Assembly: GCF_003334255.1 (NCBI RefSeq)
Contig: NZ_QOWU01000090.1
DNA length: 9,233 nt
Strand: one strand, 5' to 3'
Source: Escherichia coli
GTDB taxonomy: Bacteria; Pseudomonadota; Gammaproteobacteria; Enterobacterales; Enterobacteriaceae
Both the position numbers and the translations under genes were made by a program. The notes beneath the pieces were generated by a model. The model searched no databases, was not told where the DNA came from, and was given only the letters and a program-made list of their open reading frames with translations. Below, in pieces: positions 1 to 9,233 of this stretch (positions are counted from its first letter, which is position 1; the number at the start of each line of letters is the position of its first letter).

Positions 1-76
1 AGTTATCGTGAGAGTAATTCATCGGCACGTTAAATCATATCAGGCGTAATACCACAACCCTTAAGTTAGCGCTTAT

Positions 77-96
77 GGGGGGAAGTCCCCCTTTTT
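77..96 (+). terminator. Possible intrinsic terminator ending a transcript that enters from the left edge
   Basis: GGGGG(77-81) / CCCCC(87-91) stem with 5-nt loop, immediately followed by TTTTT (92-96). The T-run is only on the + strand side. Short stem, so only moderate support. Confidence 0.4.
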
Positions 97-2550: not shown

Positions 2551-3489
2551 ATGTCTAAATATAACCCAAATCAGTTTTATAAATTTGATGTGCGAATCTC
2601 TCAGCTTTCAGAAGAAATTAACGCAGCAGCAAGATTAATTTATATGGTCATGGTTCATAGCTGTGATTTCTATGAAGAGAAGTACAAAGCATATTCACCA
2701 AGTATTGACCATCTAGCTTATATGGCTGGTGTTTCAAAGAGAACGGCAATCAGAGCTATTGAGACACTTGAGAAACACGGTTTAATTCAGGTGCAAAAGA
2801 ATCAGGGTCGTCAAAGCACTTATCGTGTATTCACACTGGATGATAAGCCGGAATTACTTGTAAGACCTACATCACAGGAAGTTGCAGCCTCAGTAAGACA
2901 AAATGACACCACTACCAGTGACAAAATGTCATCAGTACCAGTGACAAAATGTCATGGGGGTAGTGACAAAATGTCACCCGTGTTAGATAAGTTATTAGAT
3001 AAAACATTAGATAATAATATTATAGATAAGAGTAAAGATACTGAACTTGATGTTGGTATCAATGAAGATGATTTTCTTTCTTTGGATGAATTAAATGATT
3101 TTCTCTCTATGAATGAATCTGACCTTGATAGTGAAGCTACTAAAGAGACCTCTAAAACATCTGACTTAGAGGAAGATAAAATCTCTGATGTGAATGAAGT
3201 TAGTGACCAGCAAGATACACCTTGCCGCCTCGAATCAACTGATGATGAATTACCGGATGTTGACCTTGATGATGAAGAAGACCCTGAAGAGGAATTGAAA
3301 CGTGAACAGCGTAAAGCAGAAATTAAAGAAAGATTCAGAAAGGCAAAGCTAAAGAACAGGATTGATGAACTTGATGACTTTGATGATAGTGACGATGATT
3401 TTACTTTTACACCAAAAAAGAAAACTCACACCGAGCCAAAGAAAGAAAAAGTTAAAGTCAGACGTGTTTATGCTGGAGGAATGTTTTAA
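2551..3489 (+). CDS. Replication initiator, lambda O-like (N-terminal winged-helix DNA-binding region, iterons inside the gene, highly acidic C-terminal tail)
   Basis: SD GAGG at 2537-2540. N-terminal 100 aa (…IDHLAYMAGVSKRTAIRAIETLEKHGLIQV…STYRV) look like a winged-helix replication-initiator domain. The middle of the gene holds an iteron array plus an AT-rich tract. The C-terminus is low-complexity acidic (DDELPDVDLDDEEDPEE…DDFDDSDDD). The functional call rests on architecture and was not confirmed by a homology search. Confidence 0.65.
   Translation: MSKYNPNQFYKFDVRISQLSEEINAAARLIYMVMVHSCDFYEEKYKAYSPSIDHLAYMAGVSKRTAIRAIETLEKHGLIQVQKNQGRQSTYRVFTLDDKPELLVRPTSQEVAASVRQNDTTTSDKMSSVPVTKCHGGSDKMSPVLDKLLDKTLDNNIIDKSKDTELDVGINEDDFLSLDELNDFLSMNESDLDSEATKETSKTSDLEEDKISDVNEVSDQQDTPCRLESTDDELPDVDLDDEEDPEEELKREQRKAEIKERFRKAKLKNRIDELDDFDDSDDDFTFTPKKKTHTEPKKEKVKVRRVYAGGMF
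2894..2976. repeat. Iteron array: four copies of a ~15-bp dyad element (consensus AGTGACAAAATGTCA) at 22-23 bp spacing, inside the rep coding sequence
   Basis: Exact copies at 2917-2931, 2940-2954 and 2962-2976; a degenerate copy (11/15) at 2894-2908. Arms TGACA / TGTCA are inverted repeats. The period is not a multiple of 3, so the encoded peptide (SDKMSSVPVTKCHGGSDKMSPV) is not itself repeated; conservation is at the DNA level. Confidence 0.65.
2981..3060. other. AT-rich tract with phased TAGATAA repeats immediately after the iterons (candidate DNA-unwinding element of an embedded origin)
   Basis: TAGATAA at 2984, 2996, 3008 and 3023 (about 12-bp phase) within a very AT-rich stretch (gttagataagttattagataaaacattagataataatattatagataag). 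Position relative to the iterons mirrors the lambda origin layout. Confidence 0.45.
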
Positions 3490-3779
3490 TGAAAGAATAT
3501 AACGGTGAAAAACGATACAAAGATTATCTATTAAGGCGCTACAGCATTTCTCGTGAAGGTCATCTTCTGAAAGATACTCATGGGGAGGTTTACCGGATTC
3601 GACCGAAGAAGGAAGGAAAGAATTATTTCTTTTTTGATGGTGTGACAGATTTAAAGATTGACGCTTTGAGGTTTGCAGTGATGTATCATTTTGATGTCTG
3701 GGATTCAGTCCACCAGCTACGATTAAAAGACGGTGACCCCGGTAATCTGAAGGCCACCAATATCATCACAAAACGTTAG
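3489..3779 (+). CDS. Hypothetical 96-aa protein with weak NUMOD4 / HNH-like resemblance
   Basis: Start ATG overlaps the rep stop (TAATG at 3487-3491), suggesting translational coupling. YSISREGHLLKDTHGEVYRI resembles the NUMOD4 motif and VHQLRLKDGDPGNLKATNI loosely resembles the HNH_3 core, but the canonical catalytic His/Asn positions are not all present. The coding call is reasonable; the functional call is weak. Confidence 0.5.
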   Translation: MKEYNGEKRYKDYLLRRYSISREGHLLKDTHGEVYRIRPKKEGKNYFFFDGVTDLKIDALRFAVMYHFDVWDSVHQLRLKDGDPGNLKATNIITKR

Positions 3780-3961
3780 TTTGTTTTACCATCATCAATC
3801 GTAATTGTGATTTCATATTTGAAAAGCTTAATGCTGAAATTGAATCGTGTACTTTTGGCGATAATCATTTTTAAAAGCTGATACACCAGAAGCACCAGAA
3901 ACACAAAGCAACCTAAGCTTGCGAATCTGTGAGATTCAGCAATTGTTTCAAGAAAGCCCAT
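3776..3961 (-). CDS. Small hydrophobic protein (61 aa, one predicted transmembrane helix), convergent with and overlapping the 3' end of the upstream + strand gene
   Basis: On the minus strand, AAGGGGA is followed 4 nt later by the ATG (3959-3961). Hydrophobic segment LGCFVFLVLLVYQLLKMII. An upstream CCCTT / AAGGG hairpin (3968-3985) could sequester the SD. A promoter-like element lies upstream (see 4012-4040). Function unknown. Confidence 0.4.
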   Translation of the reverse strand: MGFLETIAESHRFASLGCFVFLVLLVYQLLKMIIAKSTRFNFSIKLFKYEITITIDDGKTN

Positions 3962-4011
3962 TAATTCCCCTTATTTATCAAAGGGAATGACCTGTATCAG
4001 CCCCTATAACC

Positions 4012-4040
4012 ATAATATCATGTAAATGAGATGTTGACAA
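4012..4040 (-). promoter_or_regulatory. Candidate sigma70-type promoter for the small minus-strand ORF
   Basis: Minus-strand reading: TTGTCA (complement of 4035-4040), 17-bp spacer, TATTAT (complement of 4012-4017). The -35 overlaps the -35 of the divergent + strand promoter. Match quality is moderate; not unlikely by chance in AT-rich DNA. Confidence 0.35.
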
Positions 4041-4062
4041 TATGTTAAATAAATGTTAAGAT
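4034..4062 (+). promoter_or_regulatory. Candidate sigma70-type promoter for the 4099-5374 small-gene cassette
   Basis: TTGACA (4034-4039), 17-bp spacer, TAAGAT (4057-4062; 4/6 to TATAAT), about 37 bp upstream of the ATG at 4099. ATGTT recurs at 4031, 4042 and 4053 (~11-bp phase) across the element. Confidence 0.35.
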
Positions 4063-4098
4063 TGTAGTATGAGTAAGAGATTTAAGGAGATTTTTACA

Positions 4099-4389
4099 AT
4101 GACTCACACAGTTACGCGCCTTTTGCCAGAGGCATTTGAACGACTGGCAGCAATCAAAGCCAAATATCCCGATATGAAGCACACAGCGCTTGTTGCAGAG
4201 GTTTTAAAAGAGCCGGTAGACTTGACCCCTTTCGATAACGTTAAGGGCGTTGCAGAGGGTTCTAAGGCCATCAGAATCACAACGGGCCAACTGGAACTAC
4301 TCAAAGCACAGTCCGCAGTAGCAGGTTGCTCAATGATTCAGGTCTTAAGCGCAAAGGTTCATCAATTAGCGGATAAGCTGGGGGTTTAA
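4099..4389 (+). CDS. Hypothetical small DNA-binding protein; two consecutive ribbon-helix-helix-like segments
   Basis: SD AAGGAG at 4083-4088, ATG at 4099 (the ORF track's 4069 start lacks an SD). Residues TVTRLLPEAFERLAAIKAKYP…ALVAEVL and AIRITTGQLELLKAQSAVAGCSMIQVLSAKV each fit a beta-strand / helix / turn / helix (Arc/CopG-like) pattern. Assigned by eye only. Confidence 0.6.
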   Translation: MTHTVTRLLPEAFERLAAIKAKYPDMKHTALVAEVLKEPVDLTPFDNVKGVAEGSKAIRITTGQLELLKAQSAVAGCSMIQVLSAKVHQLADKLGV

Positions 4390-4814
4390 TGCTATGTACA
4401 TTTGATTATCATGCGTTTTATCGACATAGAGGTCATCTTGTCCGTGAGAATAACGGAACATGGAAAGATTTAACTCGTAATGCTGAACCCTTCACACACC
4501 AGCAATTAAAATCCCGCTTCTCCAGATGGAAGAATGCACCAGCAGATACTGGTGATTTTGAGATTATCCATACCTTCGATTATGCCTCAGAAGATGACCT
4601 TCACGATGCAATTAAGCTGATTGAAGACTTCAATACCTCAGAAAATGTGGATGGTGACAAATATAAATCCCGTGGTAACCGCTATAACCGTGATGATATC
4701 ACTCAGGCCATAAATGCTGGTCAATCTCAGCGATACATTACAGAAAAATATGGTATTTCACGGAGACAGTATTTCTACGTTAAATCATTGATTAATAAAG
4801 ACAATTCAAAATAA
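4389..4814 (+). CDS. Hypothetical 141-aa protein with a C-terminal HTH-like segment
   Basis: Start overlaps the upstream stop (TAATG at 4387-4391), suggesting translational coupling. C-terminus DDITQAINAGQSQRYITEKYGISRRQYFYV resembles an HTH. No recognisable catalytic motif. Confidence 0.6.
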   Translation: MLCTFDYHAFYRHRGHLVRENNGTWKDLTRNAEPFTHQQLKSRFSRWKNAPADTGDFEIIHTFDYASEDDLHDAIKLIEDFNTSENVDGDKYKSRGNRYNRDDITQAINAGQSQRYITEKYGISRRQYFYVKSLINKDNSK

Positions 4815-4820
4815 CCATCT

Positions 4821-4920
4821 CAGTAACGGTAGAATGCACTTTACAGGCAGAGTTGCACCTTAATTTGATAAATTACCTTACCAGCCAGTGCAACTCCCTC
4901 TGTAACCCGCATGGTTACTG
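4821..4920. repeat. About 100-bp interrupted inverted repeat (three collinear helices of 7, 6 and 9 bp around a 28-nt AT-rich centre) in the intergenic region
   Basis: CAGTAAC (4821-4827) pairs with GTTACTG (4914-4920); TTACAG (4841-4846) with CTGTAA (4900-4905); GAGTTGCAC (4851-4859) with GTGCAACTC (4888-4896). The central loop is cttaatttgataaattaccttaccagcca. Confidence 0.45.
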
Positions 4921-4973
4921 GCCTCAGAATGGCTATTTTAAGAGGTCTGAGATGTGTTTTAGAGGAATTTAAA

Positions 4974-5297
4974 ATGAGCAATTACGAATTACAGATTTTC
5001 GTTGATAACGACACCGCTATGATGATTCAGGCTTTCAGTGATTCCGGTGTATCAATTGATTTTGACAGGCTGTTAAAGCTGATGGCTGATAATGCAGAAA
5101 ACATCTCTGACTTTATTCAGTCGGTGGAGTTTAACGAGCCTCGAATGATGCTACCAATTACCGACTCAAACATGAAAAGATTGGTTATCGAGCAAACGAA
5201 CAAACACAGTATTTCCCCAGAGCAATTTTTGAAAGGTGCTGTGACAATCCTGCACAGCGATAATATTCTGGTGACGGATTCTATGAGGGTTCACTAA
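4974..5297 (+). CDS. Hypothetical 107-aa protein
   Basis: SD-like AGAGGAA about 8 nt upstream of the ATG at 4974; the ORF track's longer start at 4911 lies inside the inverted-repeat element and lacks an SD. No recognisable motifs and no Cys residues. Confidence 0.6.
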   Translation: MSNYELQIFVDNDTAMMIQAFSDSGVSIDFDRLLKLMADNAENISDFIQSVEFNEPRMMLPITDSNMKRLVIEQTNKHSISPEQFLKGAVTILHSDNILVTDSMRVH

Positions 5298-5374
5298 TGG
5301 GATTGATAATTGCTTGGACAGCTTTAGGTTTATTTGTTGGTTGCTGGGTGGGCAACACAGTAAATAAGAATTGA
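5297..5374 (+). CDS. Candidate 25-aa hydrophobic peptide (MGLIIAWTALGLFVGCWVGNTVNKN), coupled to the upstream gene
   Basis: ATG overlaps the stop of the 107-aa gene (TAATG at 5295-5299). The ORF is a single hydrophobic helix-length segment with a polar tail. It is below the ORF-track size cutoff and could be fortuitous. Confidence 0.3.
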   Translation: MGLIIAWTALGLFVGCWVGNTVNKN

Positions 5375-5398
5375 TGTTACCAATCTGTTAAAAAGCTG

Positions 5399-5427
5399 TT
5401 GACAAATAACCTTAAGCATGGCATAAT
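5399..5427 (+). promoter_or_regulatory. Near-consensus sigma70 promoter (TTGACA, 17-bp spacer, CATAAT)
   Basis: TTGACA at 5399-5404, exactly 17 bp of spacer, CATAAT at 5422-5427. Predicted start near 5434-5436. A GGATAG / CTATCC hairpin sits at about +5 to +22 (5439-5456). Confidence 0.55.
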
Positions 5428-5622
5428 TGTATATATGAGGATAGTCTTCTATCCGAAGTCTATAGGAAGAGCAATTTTTCCTAAAATCATATTTTCAATA
5501 ATCCGATGGATGGATATTCTGAGTTGGAAAGGTGCAATGCTTTTCGTCATGGCCTTTCAGTTTAGTCTGAGAGGTCATCTCAAAAAGTGCTTAATCATTC
5601 ATTATTGAACCCTTACAGCTTT

Positions 5623-5652
5623 GCCCTAACTCATGATTAGGGCGTTTTCTTT
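5623..5652 (+). terminator. Intrinsic terminator
   Basis: GCCCTAA (5623-5629) / TTAGGGC (5637-5643) 7-bp stem with 7-nt loop, followed by GTTTTCTTT. Confidence 0.55.
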
Positions 5653-5723
5653 AAGAGTTTTGAAACAGAGCTTTTAAAGAAAGTTTTCCTGAAACTTCGT
5701 TAACGTTATAAGCAAACCTTCAA

Positions 5724-5756
5724 AGCCCTTCACAGATTATGTTTAGGGCTTTTCTT
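5724..5756 (+). terminator. Second, related terminator-like hairpin
   Basis: AGCCCT (5724-5729) / AGGGCT (5745-5750), extendable to 8 bp, with a 15-nt loop and TTTCTT tail. Sequence is related to the first terminator (…gccct…tagggc.ttttctt.a..agag). Confidence 0.4.
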
Positions 5757-5853
5757 AATAGAGCATCTTTAATAAATCGTTAAGTCATCTTCTAAGTGTA
5801 TTGGCGTTGAAGGTGCTCTATTAAGAAATAACCACACTTAGAGGAAAAAAATA

Positions 5854-9112: not shown

Positions 9113-9154
9113 GCTACGTGATTTCTTCTGAACAGATACCAACATCAAAAATTA
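9113..9154 (+). repeat. 42-bp intergenic direct repeat, copy 2 (downstream of the 688-aa gene)
   Basis: gctacgtgatttcttctgaacagataccaacatcaaaaatta; see copy 1 at 6874-6915. Confidence 0.6.
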
Positions 9155-9233
9155 GATGAACCGCCCCGGGTTTCCTGGAGAGTGTTTTATCTGTGAACTC
9201 AGGCTGCCAGATCATTGTTTCCGATGGAAGCAT

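Follow-up and report, generated by a model that had tools for sequence, protein, structure and literature searches.

A conserved inverted repeat beside a motif shared by unrelated replicons: a possible replication module in a satellite-like element of Escherichia coli

The locus

The window analyzed here, a 9,233-nucleotide (nt) stretch of E. coli contig NZ_QOWU01000090.1, is part of an integrative element of about 11.5 kb (about 11 to 12 kb across its family). It encodes a small serine recombinase, an N6-adenine methyltransferase, an O/DnaD-like helix-turn-helix (HTH) initiator of 312 amino acids (aa), several small open reading frames (ORFs) and a tape-measure protein. A first-pass annotation had marked an interrupted inverted repeat of about 100 bp at 4821–4920, between the genes for a 141-aa and a 107-aa protein. 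Our analysis finds at this place a 9-bp inverted repeat that is conserved in relatives and, overlapping its right half, an asymmetric motif common to phages, plasmids, satellites and islands of more than 80 unrelated families in Proteobacteria and some Firmicutes. The site comprises the following features.

4389–4814, plus strand: gene of the 141-aa protein, which has a three-helix HTH at its C-terminus and is the candidate binder of the repeat; the gene ends 35 nt upstream of the repeat
4821–4827, plus strand: left arm CAGTAAC of the outer helix, partner at 4914–4920; lineage-specific and decaying
4841–4846, plus strand: left arm TTACAG of the middle helix, partner at 4900–4905 inside the conserved motif; present in allele A only and invariant there
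4850–4858, plus strand: left arm of the inner repeat (GAGTTGCAC, allele A), paired with 4888–4896 in 16 of 16 distinct relatives
4859–4887, no strand: spacer or loop of 29 nt with 69% A+T; all alleles have this length, and point changes are tolerated
4888–4896, plus strand: right arm of the inner repeat (GTGCAACTC); the homology between alleles A and B breaks within it, at about 4893
4894–4924, plus strand: motif CCCT-CTGTAACCCGCATGGTTACTGG (CCCT plus CTGTAACCCGCATGGTTACTGG at 4896–4921, core CTGTAACCCGCATGGTTACTGG at 4900–4921), matched by a hidden Markov model (HMM) of 80 non-satellite families

The inverted repeat and its alleles

The three helices first described for this site lie where they had been placed: CAGTAAC with GTTACTG, TTACAG with CTGTAA, and the inner 9-bp arms. 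The centre that they enclose is AT-rich as described, with a length of 29 nt rather than 28 nt. We additionally find a fourth, outer helix that joins CATCTCAG at 4816–4823 to CTGAGATG at 4947–4954. Taken by itself, the inner hairpin outperforms 99.7% of its dinucleotide shuffles in folding (p = 0.003); p is 0.004 for the whole stretch 4815–4926, and single-strand folding of 4810–4960 gives z = −3.8 for the plus and z = −4.4 for the minus strand. The two outer arm regions do not pair significantly with one another (duplex energy −17.9 versus −13.6 ± 2.8 kcal/mol for shuffled sequences; p = 0.08). The argument that the collinear arrangement makes chance unlikely therefore owes its validity to the inner helix alone.

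A BLAST search with the intergenic region recovered the whole region in 57 genomes, while about 120 genomes matched 4893–4974 only, which means that the homology breaks inside the right inner arm. Three alleles of the repeat were found: A (GAGTTGCAC-29 nt-GTGCAACTC), B (GAGTGAGAC-29 nt-GTCTCACTC) and C (GAGTGTCAG-29 nt-CTGACACTC), all of which continue 3′ into an identical CCCTCTG(T/A)AACCCGCATG. Across 10 distinct sequences the inner helix is 100% paired, and 4 of its 9 pairs are doubly changed between alleles, by Watson–Crick exchanges only and with no G-U pair. Among 16 distinct sequences, taken from 43 metagenome loci and the genomes, no allele is variable in its arms; in the spacer, always 29 nt long, about 10 point changes were seen. 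Compared with the spacer, the arms are thus subject to purifying selection. When metagenomes were scanned for new repeat alleles, only A and B were recovered.

The middle and outer helices behave differently. Their left partners exist in allele A only and are absent from B and C, and in A-type relatives CAGTAAC has become AAGTAAC, AAGAAAC or GAATAAC, and GTTACTG has become GTTACCG or GTTATTG, without compensation. Therefore, the interrupted repeat of about 100 bp is not a conserved unit; the 9-bp pair is. Covariation in homologues, proposed earlier as the check on this structure, is thus seen for the inner arms, which are conserved and compensated, whereas the outer helices are neither. We conclude that the outer helices are not meaningful, and that the inner repeat, which is real and conserved, is probably a protein-binding palindrome.

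The 141-aa protein is the candidate for its binder. It is confined to Escherichia, is 128 to 133 aa long in the other alleles, and its C-terminus is weakly similar to the DNA-binding domain (HTH) of gamma-delta resolvase (E 0.3–0.8). Its AlphaFold model has a pLDDT of 68 overall and of 80–85 in the HTH region. The putative recognition helix differs by allele (SRRQYFYVKS, SRSQYYKIKA or SERQYYRIKQ) and tracks the repeat allele, and the B repeat accompanies chimeric proteins that join an A-type N-terminus to a B-type C-terminus. The repeat allele is independent of the allele of the initiator and its iterons: the window and its relative L003 have the same 23-bp iterons with repeats A and B, respectively, while the window and L001 both have repeat A and differ in their iterons. 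Relatives that lack the 312-aa initiator retain the 128-aa protein together with repeat B; the 185-aa gene found in these relatives has no family matches. From these observations we infer that the inner 9-bp repeat is most likely a pair of half-sites for the upstream HTH protein, or a hairpin that is extruded. Among the functions offered at first, the inner repeat best suits that of an operator with two half-sites for a neighbouring DNA-binding protein, given the palindromic covariation, the linkage to the HTH alleles and the chimeras; this applies to the 141-aa protein, while nothing links the 96-aa protein, also proposed, to the site.

A motif shared by unrelated replicons

The sequence that overlaps the right half of the repeat belongs to a motif of about 26 to 31 nt with the asymmetric consensus CCCT-CTGnAAsCCGCrTGGTTACTGG-sTT. 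An nhmmer profile built from the 80 non-satellite families has a single match in the window, at 4894–4924 (E = 1.5e-10), and the information content bounds the motif at about −6 to +25. An IMG/VR scan with CCCTCTGNAACCCGCATG (25 loci) returned, besides the satellites, about 10 unrelated phage families in which the similarity runs beyond the pattern. A second pattern, CTGNAANCCGCNTGGTTACTGG, found 48 viral loci in IMG/VR; in a set of 100,044 species it also matched 40 loci, from about 38 species that are mostly Gamma- and Betaproteobacteria, with further occurrences in Clostridia, Selenomonadaceae, Desulforudis and Armatimonadetes metagenome-assembled genomes. By BLAST, the motif was found in 40 GenBank phages (of Erwinia, Pantoea, Pectobacterium, Pseudomonas and Klebsiella) and in 2010 plasmids, including the IncHI2 plasmid R478. 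The motif stands in either orientation relative to its neighbouring genes, and its variable positions show no covariation as a stem (83 families; pairing at chance level, p about 0.8); it is therefore a linear DNA motif rather than an RNA hairpin, promoter or terminator. That about 22 nt are nearly identical from Proteobacteria to Clostridia, and stand in a fixed arrangement with the iterons, calls for strong functional constraint, with the proviso that the conservation figures of the core are inflated, since the instances were collected with exact patterns. Searches of the literature by sequence string and by keyword, whose reach did not extend to older subscription papers on plasmid origins, found no description of the motif.

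Around the motif, most families have short family-specific repeats, inverted on its 5′ side and in direct tandem on its 3′ side (for example TGTTGCCAC, GTTCCCAC, GACGTTCACC, AAATTAACG, GGTTAGGT and TACGGGACAA). In one phage group four DnaA boxes occupy the place where iterons would stand. The gene next to the motif, as assigned with PHROGs, encodes a primase, a primase/helicase or a replication protein at L083, L085, L099, L090, L111, L112, L084, L088, L043, L053, L070, L072 and L042. The neighbour is a CyRepA1 plasmid replication protein at L066, and at L108 a protein with an HUH-like motif by eye and a weak SF3 helicase match. A primase, helicase or Rep neighbour was found in at least 14 independent motif families. 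The opposed initiator-binding repeats around the motif and the replication genes beside it place it inside the origins of these unrelated replicons. In about 760 Klebsiella-type plasmids a 12-bp inverted repeat frames the motif about 100 bp upstream of an ORF; in pKPC2 this ORF has no family matches, and its homologues are annotated as a replication protein in some records only. Clustering by blastp and phmmer searches revealed no protein family common to the neighbours. Across the 80 families the AT excess is strongest at −60 to −20, 5′ of the motif, where the 29-nt AT-rich spacer of the satellite also falls. Two further loci, L089 and L066, have the same layout as the satellite: a 9-bp inverted repeat with a spacer of 22 to 35 nt, then 3 to 6 nt, then the motif.

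Comparison with known origins

The arrangement recalls the ori and crr of phage P4, as well as the ori of Staphylococcus aureus pathogenicity islands (SaPIs) and phage-inducible chromosomal islands (PICIs), in which element-specific short opposed repeats surround a central segment of about 30 to 35 bp beside a replication gene. In P4, opposed 8-bp repeats lie around a 35-bp spacer next to the primase gene. The two differ in that the P4 centre is T-rich, whereas the satellite has a conserved, moderately GC-rich, asymmetric 22- to 30-mer as its centre or flank; P4 ori and crr gave no match to the motif. P4 requires crr as a second cis site, distant from ori. Compared with P4 and SaPIs, the satellite has only one repeat pair, and its recognizable initiator has iterons of its own elsewhere:

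2897–3014, plus strand: lambda-like origin candidate inside the O-like initiator gene (2551–3489), in which an AT-rich 12-bp repeat comes after 3.5 copies of a 23-bp iteron (GACAAAATGTCATCAGTACCAGT)

The iteron array itself spans 2897–2976, and each 23-bp unit contains the palindrome TGACAAAATGTCA. L003 has the iterons of the window; in L001 the iteron is another one, of 22 bp, and the initiator gene has diverged in its N-terminal part. An initiator gene that carries its iterons, followed by an AT-rich run, is the layout of lambda ori. The iteron locus is distinct from the module at 4821–4920, for which no lambda counterpart is known. The repeat site does have an AT-rich 29-bp spacer but only two half-sites, the fuller array being that of the initiator gene. 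Given this lambda-type origin candidate, the module at 4850–4924 would be a second cis site, as crr is in P4, a priming site or something else.

The RepHI2A replicon of R478 (IncHI2) has the same motif (CTGTAGGCCGCATGGTTACTGG) with Rep iterons directly 3′ of it. There the motif stands 760 bp upstream of repHI2, with GATC heptamers 5′ of it and five iterons of 21 bp on the other side. For the R478 iterons, PMC4980987 cites Page et al. 2001. A second iteron array, nearer to repHI2, lacks the motif. R478 differs from the satellite in having a classical Rep-type initiator with 21-bp iterons. No description of the R478 motif was found in searchable papers.

A third likeness is to G4-type single-strand initiation (ssi) signals and to ssiA and ssiB of RSF1010, in which a hairpin is followed after a few nucleotides by 5′-CTG-3′ on the template. 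In G4, stem-loop I is followed by CTA and CTG; in the window, the hairpin of 4850–4896 is followed by CCT and by CTG at 4900–4902, so that the stem-loop and the CTG of such a signal are both present. G4 and the motif variants have GAAAGCCGC and ACTG in common, with a 9-nt identity for the AAGCC variants only and not for the window. A BLAST search of the motif against plasmids and phages gave no match to IncFII plasmids or G4. On these sequence grounds the likeness to G4-type signals is one of resemblance and not of membership. A DnaG-type priming signal would explain why the motif is conserved across replicons with unrelated initiators.

Interpretation and alternative readings

Based on these findings, we tentatively propose that 4850–4924 is a DNA-level module for replication initiation or priming, which consists of an inverted repeat bound by the 141-aa protein and an origin core shared among replicons; we give this reading somewhat less than even chances. 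The structure, conservation and allele linkage of the repeat were observed directly, as were the spread of the motif and its neighbours, whereas binding by the 141-aa protein, a part in the replication of this element and the identity of what reads the motif are inferred. In this scheme, the specific HTH protein would mark the site at the inverted repeat, the AT-rich spacer would melt, and the conserved motif would serve as the loading or priming site for conserved, probably host, replication machinery, with the outcome that DNA synthesis starts on the satellite-like element. The initiators that neighbour the motif are unrelated (Toprim, Prim-Pol, SF3 and SF4 helicases, Rep-type proteins, DnaA boxes), and the motif is therefore more likely to be read by conserved host machinery than by proteins of the elements. 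CTG is the preferred start of DnaG. CTG occurs twice in one strand of the motif and is absent from the other, which, together with the hairpin and its following CCT-CTG (compare stem-loop I and CTA-CTG of G4), makes a primase start or loading site attractive.

A more far-reaching proposal, which we regard as doubtful, is that the motif is a previously unrecognized, near-universal origin module. It would be inserted between the own iterons of replicons whose initiators are unrelated (Rep_3-type, Toprim plus DUF927, Prim-Pol/D5, P4-alpha-like, CyRepA1 and DnaA-box-driven) and would be read by a conserved component of the host replisome, for example DnaG primase or the DnaB loading machinery. The satellite would then pair the motif with an allele-specific HTH protein and its repeat as a minimal, swappable replication-specificity cassette. 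If the motif is indeed a shared origin core, it would provide a sequence handle for finding origins in uncharacterized plasmids, phages, satellites and islands across phyla, and it would point to an initiation step, priming or helicase loading, that is common to unrelated initiators and is without a known sequence signal. The alleles of the repeat and the HTH protein would define specificity or incompatibility groups within the satellite family. If the module is an ordinary operator, the finding is routine.

Several observations weigh against a replication module. No factor that reads the motif was identified, and the motif HMM has no match in the G4 complementary-strand origin (oric; G4 3700–4200). 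On the side of the repeat, the single 9-bp pair lies 5′ of the motif and there is no copy of its arms 3′ of the motif or elsewhere in the window, whereas the element possesses a textbook candidate for a lambda-like origin 1.9 kb away. The 141-aa protein belongs to no Pfam, PHROG or NCBIfam family and its model has no significant fold match; its linkage to the repeat allele could merely reflect physical adjacency. As to the company of the motif, terminase genes adjoin it in several phage families, and two large phage contigs (IMG/VR 3300045988_124452 and _137192, of 111 and 152 kb; L045 and L061–L065) contain at least 14 copies. In these contigs the motif sits in a conserved cassette of about 90 nt (tgcaaatgtagcatcgt-motif-...aatttacttctaagtaaggaatggtt), often upstream of ORFs, with which the role of a single origin does not fit; at L063 there are two divergent copies, each with a degenerate second copy about 130 nt later. 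At L058, L086 and L094 the motif ends 0 to 1 nt from the CCA terminus of an oppositely oriented tRNA gene, and at L058 a partial duplicate of the tRNA T-arm lies on its other side. Such tRNA-abutting motifs may mark origins at the very end of tRNA-integrated islands.

An unlikely alternative, though the strongest of the others, is a transcriptional operator, in which the 141-aa HTH protein on its two half-sites regulates itself or the genes from the 107-aa gene onward, towards the tape-measure gene, the motif being incidental or otherwise used. The allele linkage and the perfect DNA palindromy would be expected of such a site, which also lies at the junction between regulatory or replication genes and downstream structural-type genes. 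However, the centres of the half-sites are separated by 38 bp, an unusual distance for the operator of a dimeric HTH protein, our scan for sigma-70 promoters and terminators gave nothing convincing at the site, and an operator leaves unexplained why the adjacent 30 nt or so are common to the origins of unrelated replicons. The same position where replication genes meet structural-type genes would suit a packaging signal, which had been among the initial suggestions and which we keep as a rival of lower probability still. The 141-aa protein would then be a small-terminase-like specificity factor, and repeat plus motif a pac- or cos-type site for packaging by a helper phage. The terminase neighbours of the motif point this way, including that of Pectobacterium phage Ymer, whose record ends at the motif beside the terminase gene. 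Yet the motif also occurs in plasmids that are not packaged (the oriV region of R478 and about 2000 plasmids), most families have it next to iterons and primase-helicase genes, single phage genomes contain multiple copies of it, and the 141-aa protein resembles no terminase by family or fold.

The idea that a structured RNA, a long interrupted hairpin in a polycistronic mRNA or an antisense transcript, gates the genes behind it, whether by attenuation, by processing or by masking the ribosome-binding site, fared poorly and appears improbable to us. The fold z-scores given above agree with it, CCCTCT could pair with the ribosome-binding site AGAGGA, and a weak hairpin followed by TATTTT lies at 4919–4939. 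But the window has no Rfam match at E ≤ 1 and 4300–5400 has no terminator-like site, the outer helices are missing from alleles B and C and decay uncompensated in A, the conserved stem is free of G-U pairs, and the right-hand sequence is a DNA motif that stands in both orientations relative to transcription with no internal covariation. At the gathering threshold, Rfam gave nothing relevant for 11 motif loci, and a scan for tRNA and tmRNA found none. We consider it very improbable that the site has no dedicated function, with the motif as a short conserved linker that promotes recombination between mosaic elements at a module boundary and the repeat as a by-product: the A/B homology break falls exactly at the junction of repeat and motif and chimeric 141-aa alleles exist, but neither the near-identity of the motif from Proteobacteria to Clostridia in its fixed arrangement with iterons nor the purifying selection on the arms relative to the spacer would follow from it.

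A recombination site in the narrower sense, another of the early proposals, is also unlikely. We rejected a serine-recombinase crossover site (res or hix), since the GTAACC/GGTTAC symmetry of the motif has a 5-nt centre and is itself unconserved across families, and the inner arms are 29 bp apart. An attP core of tyrosine integrases was rejected because the motif occurs in plasmid origins and in multiple copies per genome, and because it is internal in the satellite, which integrates by a large serine recombinase at the element end. Erwinia phage Y2 (Chaseviridae), a virulent phage, carries the motif, and no integrase is annotated in the 5.9-kb stretch of it that was examined. Tus/Ter sites, integration host factor (IHF) sites and DnaA boxes were ruled out on sequence or context. 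Other candidates were dropped as well: a sigma-54-like TGGCC-N-GGCT match is, by eye, unconserved in relatives; a hairpin within the motif (CTGnAAsCC/GGsTTnCAG, with an 11-nt loop) is seemingly compensated in a few families and pairs at chance level across 83; the HMM lends no support to the idea that a degenerate, inverted motif copy makes up the left outer arms; and a similarity to the ColE1 nic site and ori (TACTGGCTT) was treated as coincidence.

The element and other features of the window

Homologues of 4300–5400 are present in 473 of 5426 complete E. coli genomes (about 9%), in every case on the chromosome, and the insertion sites of intact relatives are at wrbA, in a DUF72 gene beside yecD/yecN, and beside yciI or mdtG. 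The family (L001–L008) is characterized by two serine recombinases, a methyltransferase, the initiator, and tape-measure and baseplate proteins, and genes for a capsid or a terminase are absent. It resembles a phage satellite or a tail-related hitchhiker, apparently one not yet described; keyword searches of the literature found no paper describing it. The copy in the window breaks off past the tape-measure gene, without the genes for the baseplate protein and the large serine recombinase that intact relatives possess, and both ends of the window (1–79 and 9146–9233) match IS629/IS3-type sequences found in Stx phages. This copy therefore appears truncated or bracketed by insertion sequences (IS).

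The serine recombinase module (346–1205, corresponding to L001 11059–11855) is on the minus strand in the window, L004, L005, L006 and L007, and on the plus strand in L001 and L002. Between conserved flanks, the module of the window has no nucleotide homology to that of L001, which points to an exchange of cassettes and not to a simple inversion. Upstream of the methyltransferase gene, 1350–1411 is an AT-rich palindromic region with repeated TACAGAT/ATCTGTA units, which could be a protein-binding or recombinase site; an Rfam microRNA match there is at chance level only.

Downstream of the motif lies one further small gene:

4974–5297, plus strand: 107-aa gene, function unassigned; it starts 53 nt after the motif

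The non-coding gap that follows it (5298–5853) contains, at 5716–5845, the strongest structure of the window (181-nt fold, z = −5.7), just upstream of the gene for a 236-aa protein; this protein is labelled a transposase in some records, a label for which family support is absent. In this structure 5751–5772 pairs with 5807–5828 (22-nt arms, 91% complementary), and a terminator-like hairpin AAAGCCC...GGGCTTT with a T-run lies at 5722–5755, 5′ of these arms. In the same gap, the 32-nt sequence at 5432–5463 recurs with 97–100% identity just upstream of the tape-measure gene of relatives (L001 17993–18023; L004 11003–11034), and may be a repeated regulatory element.
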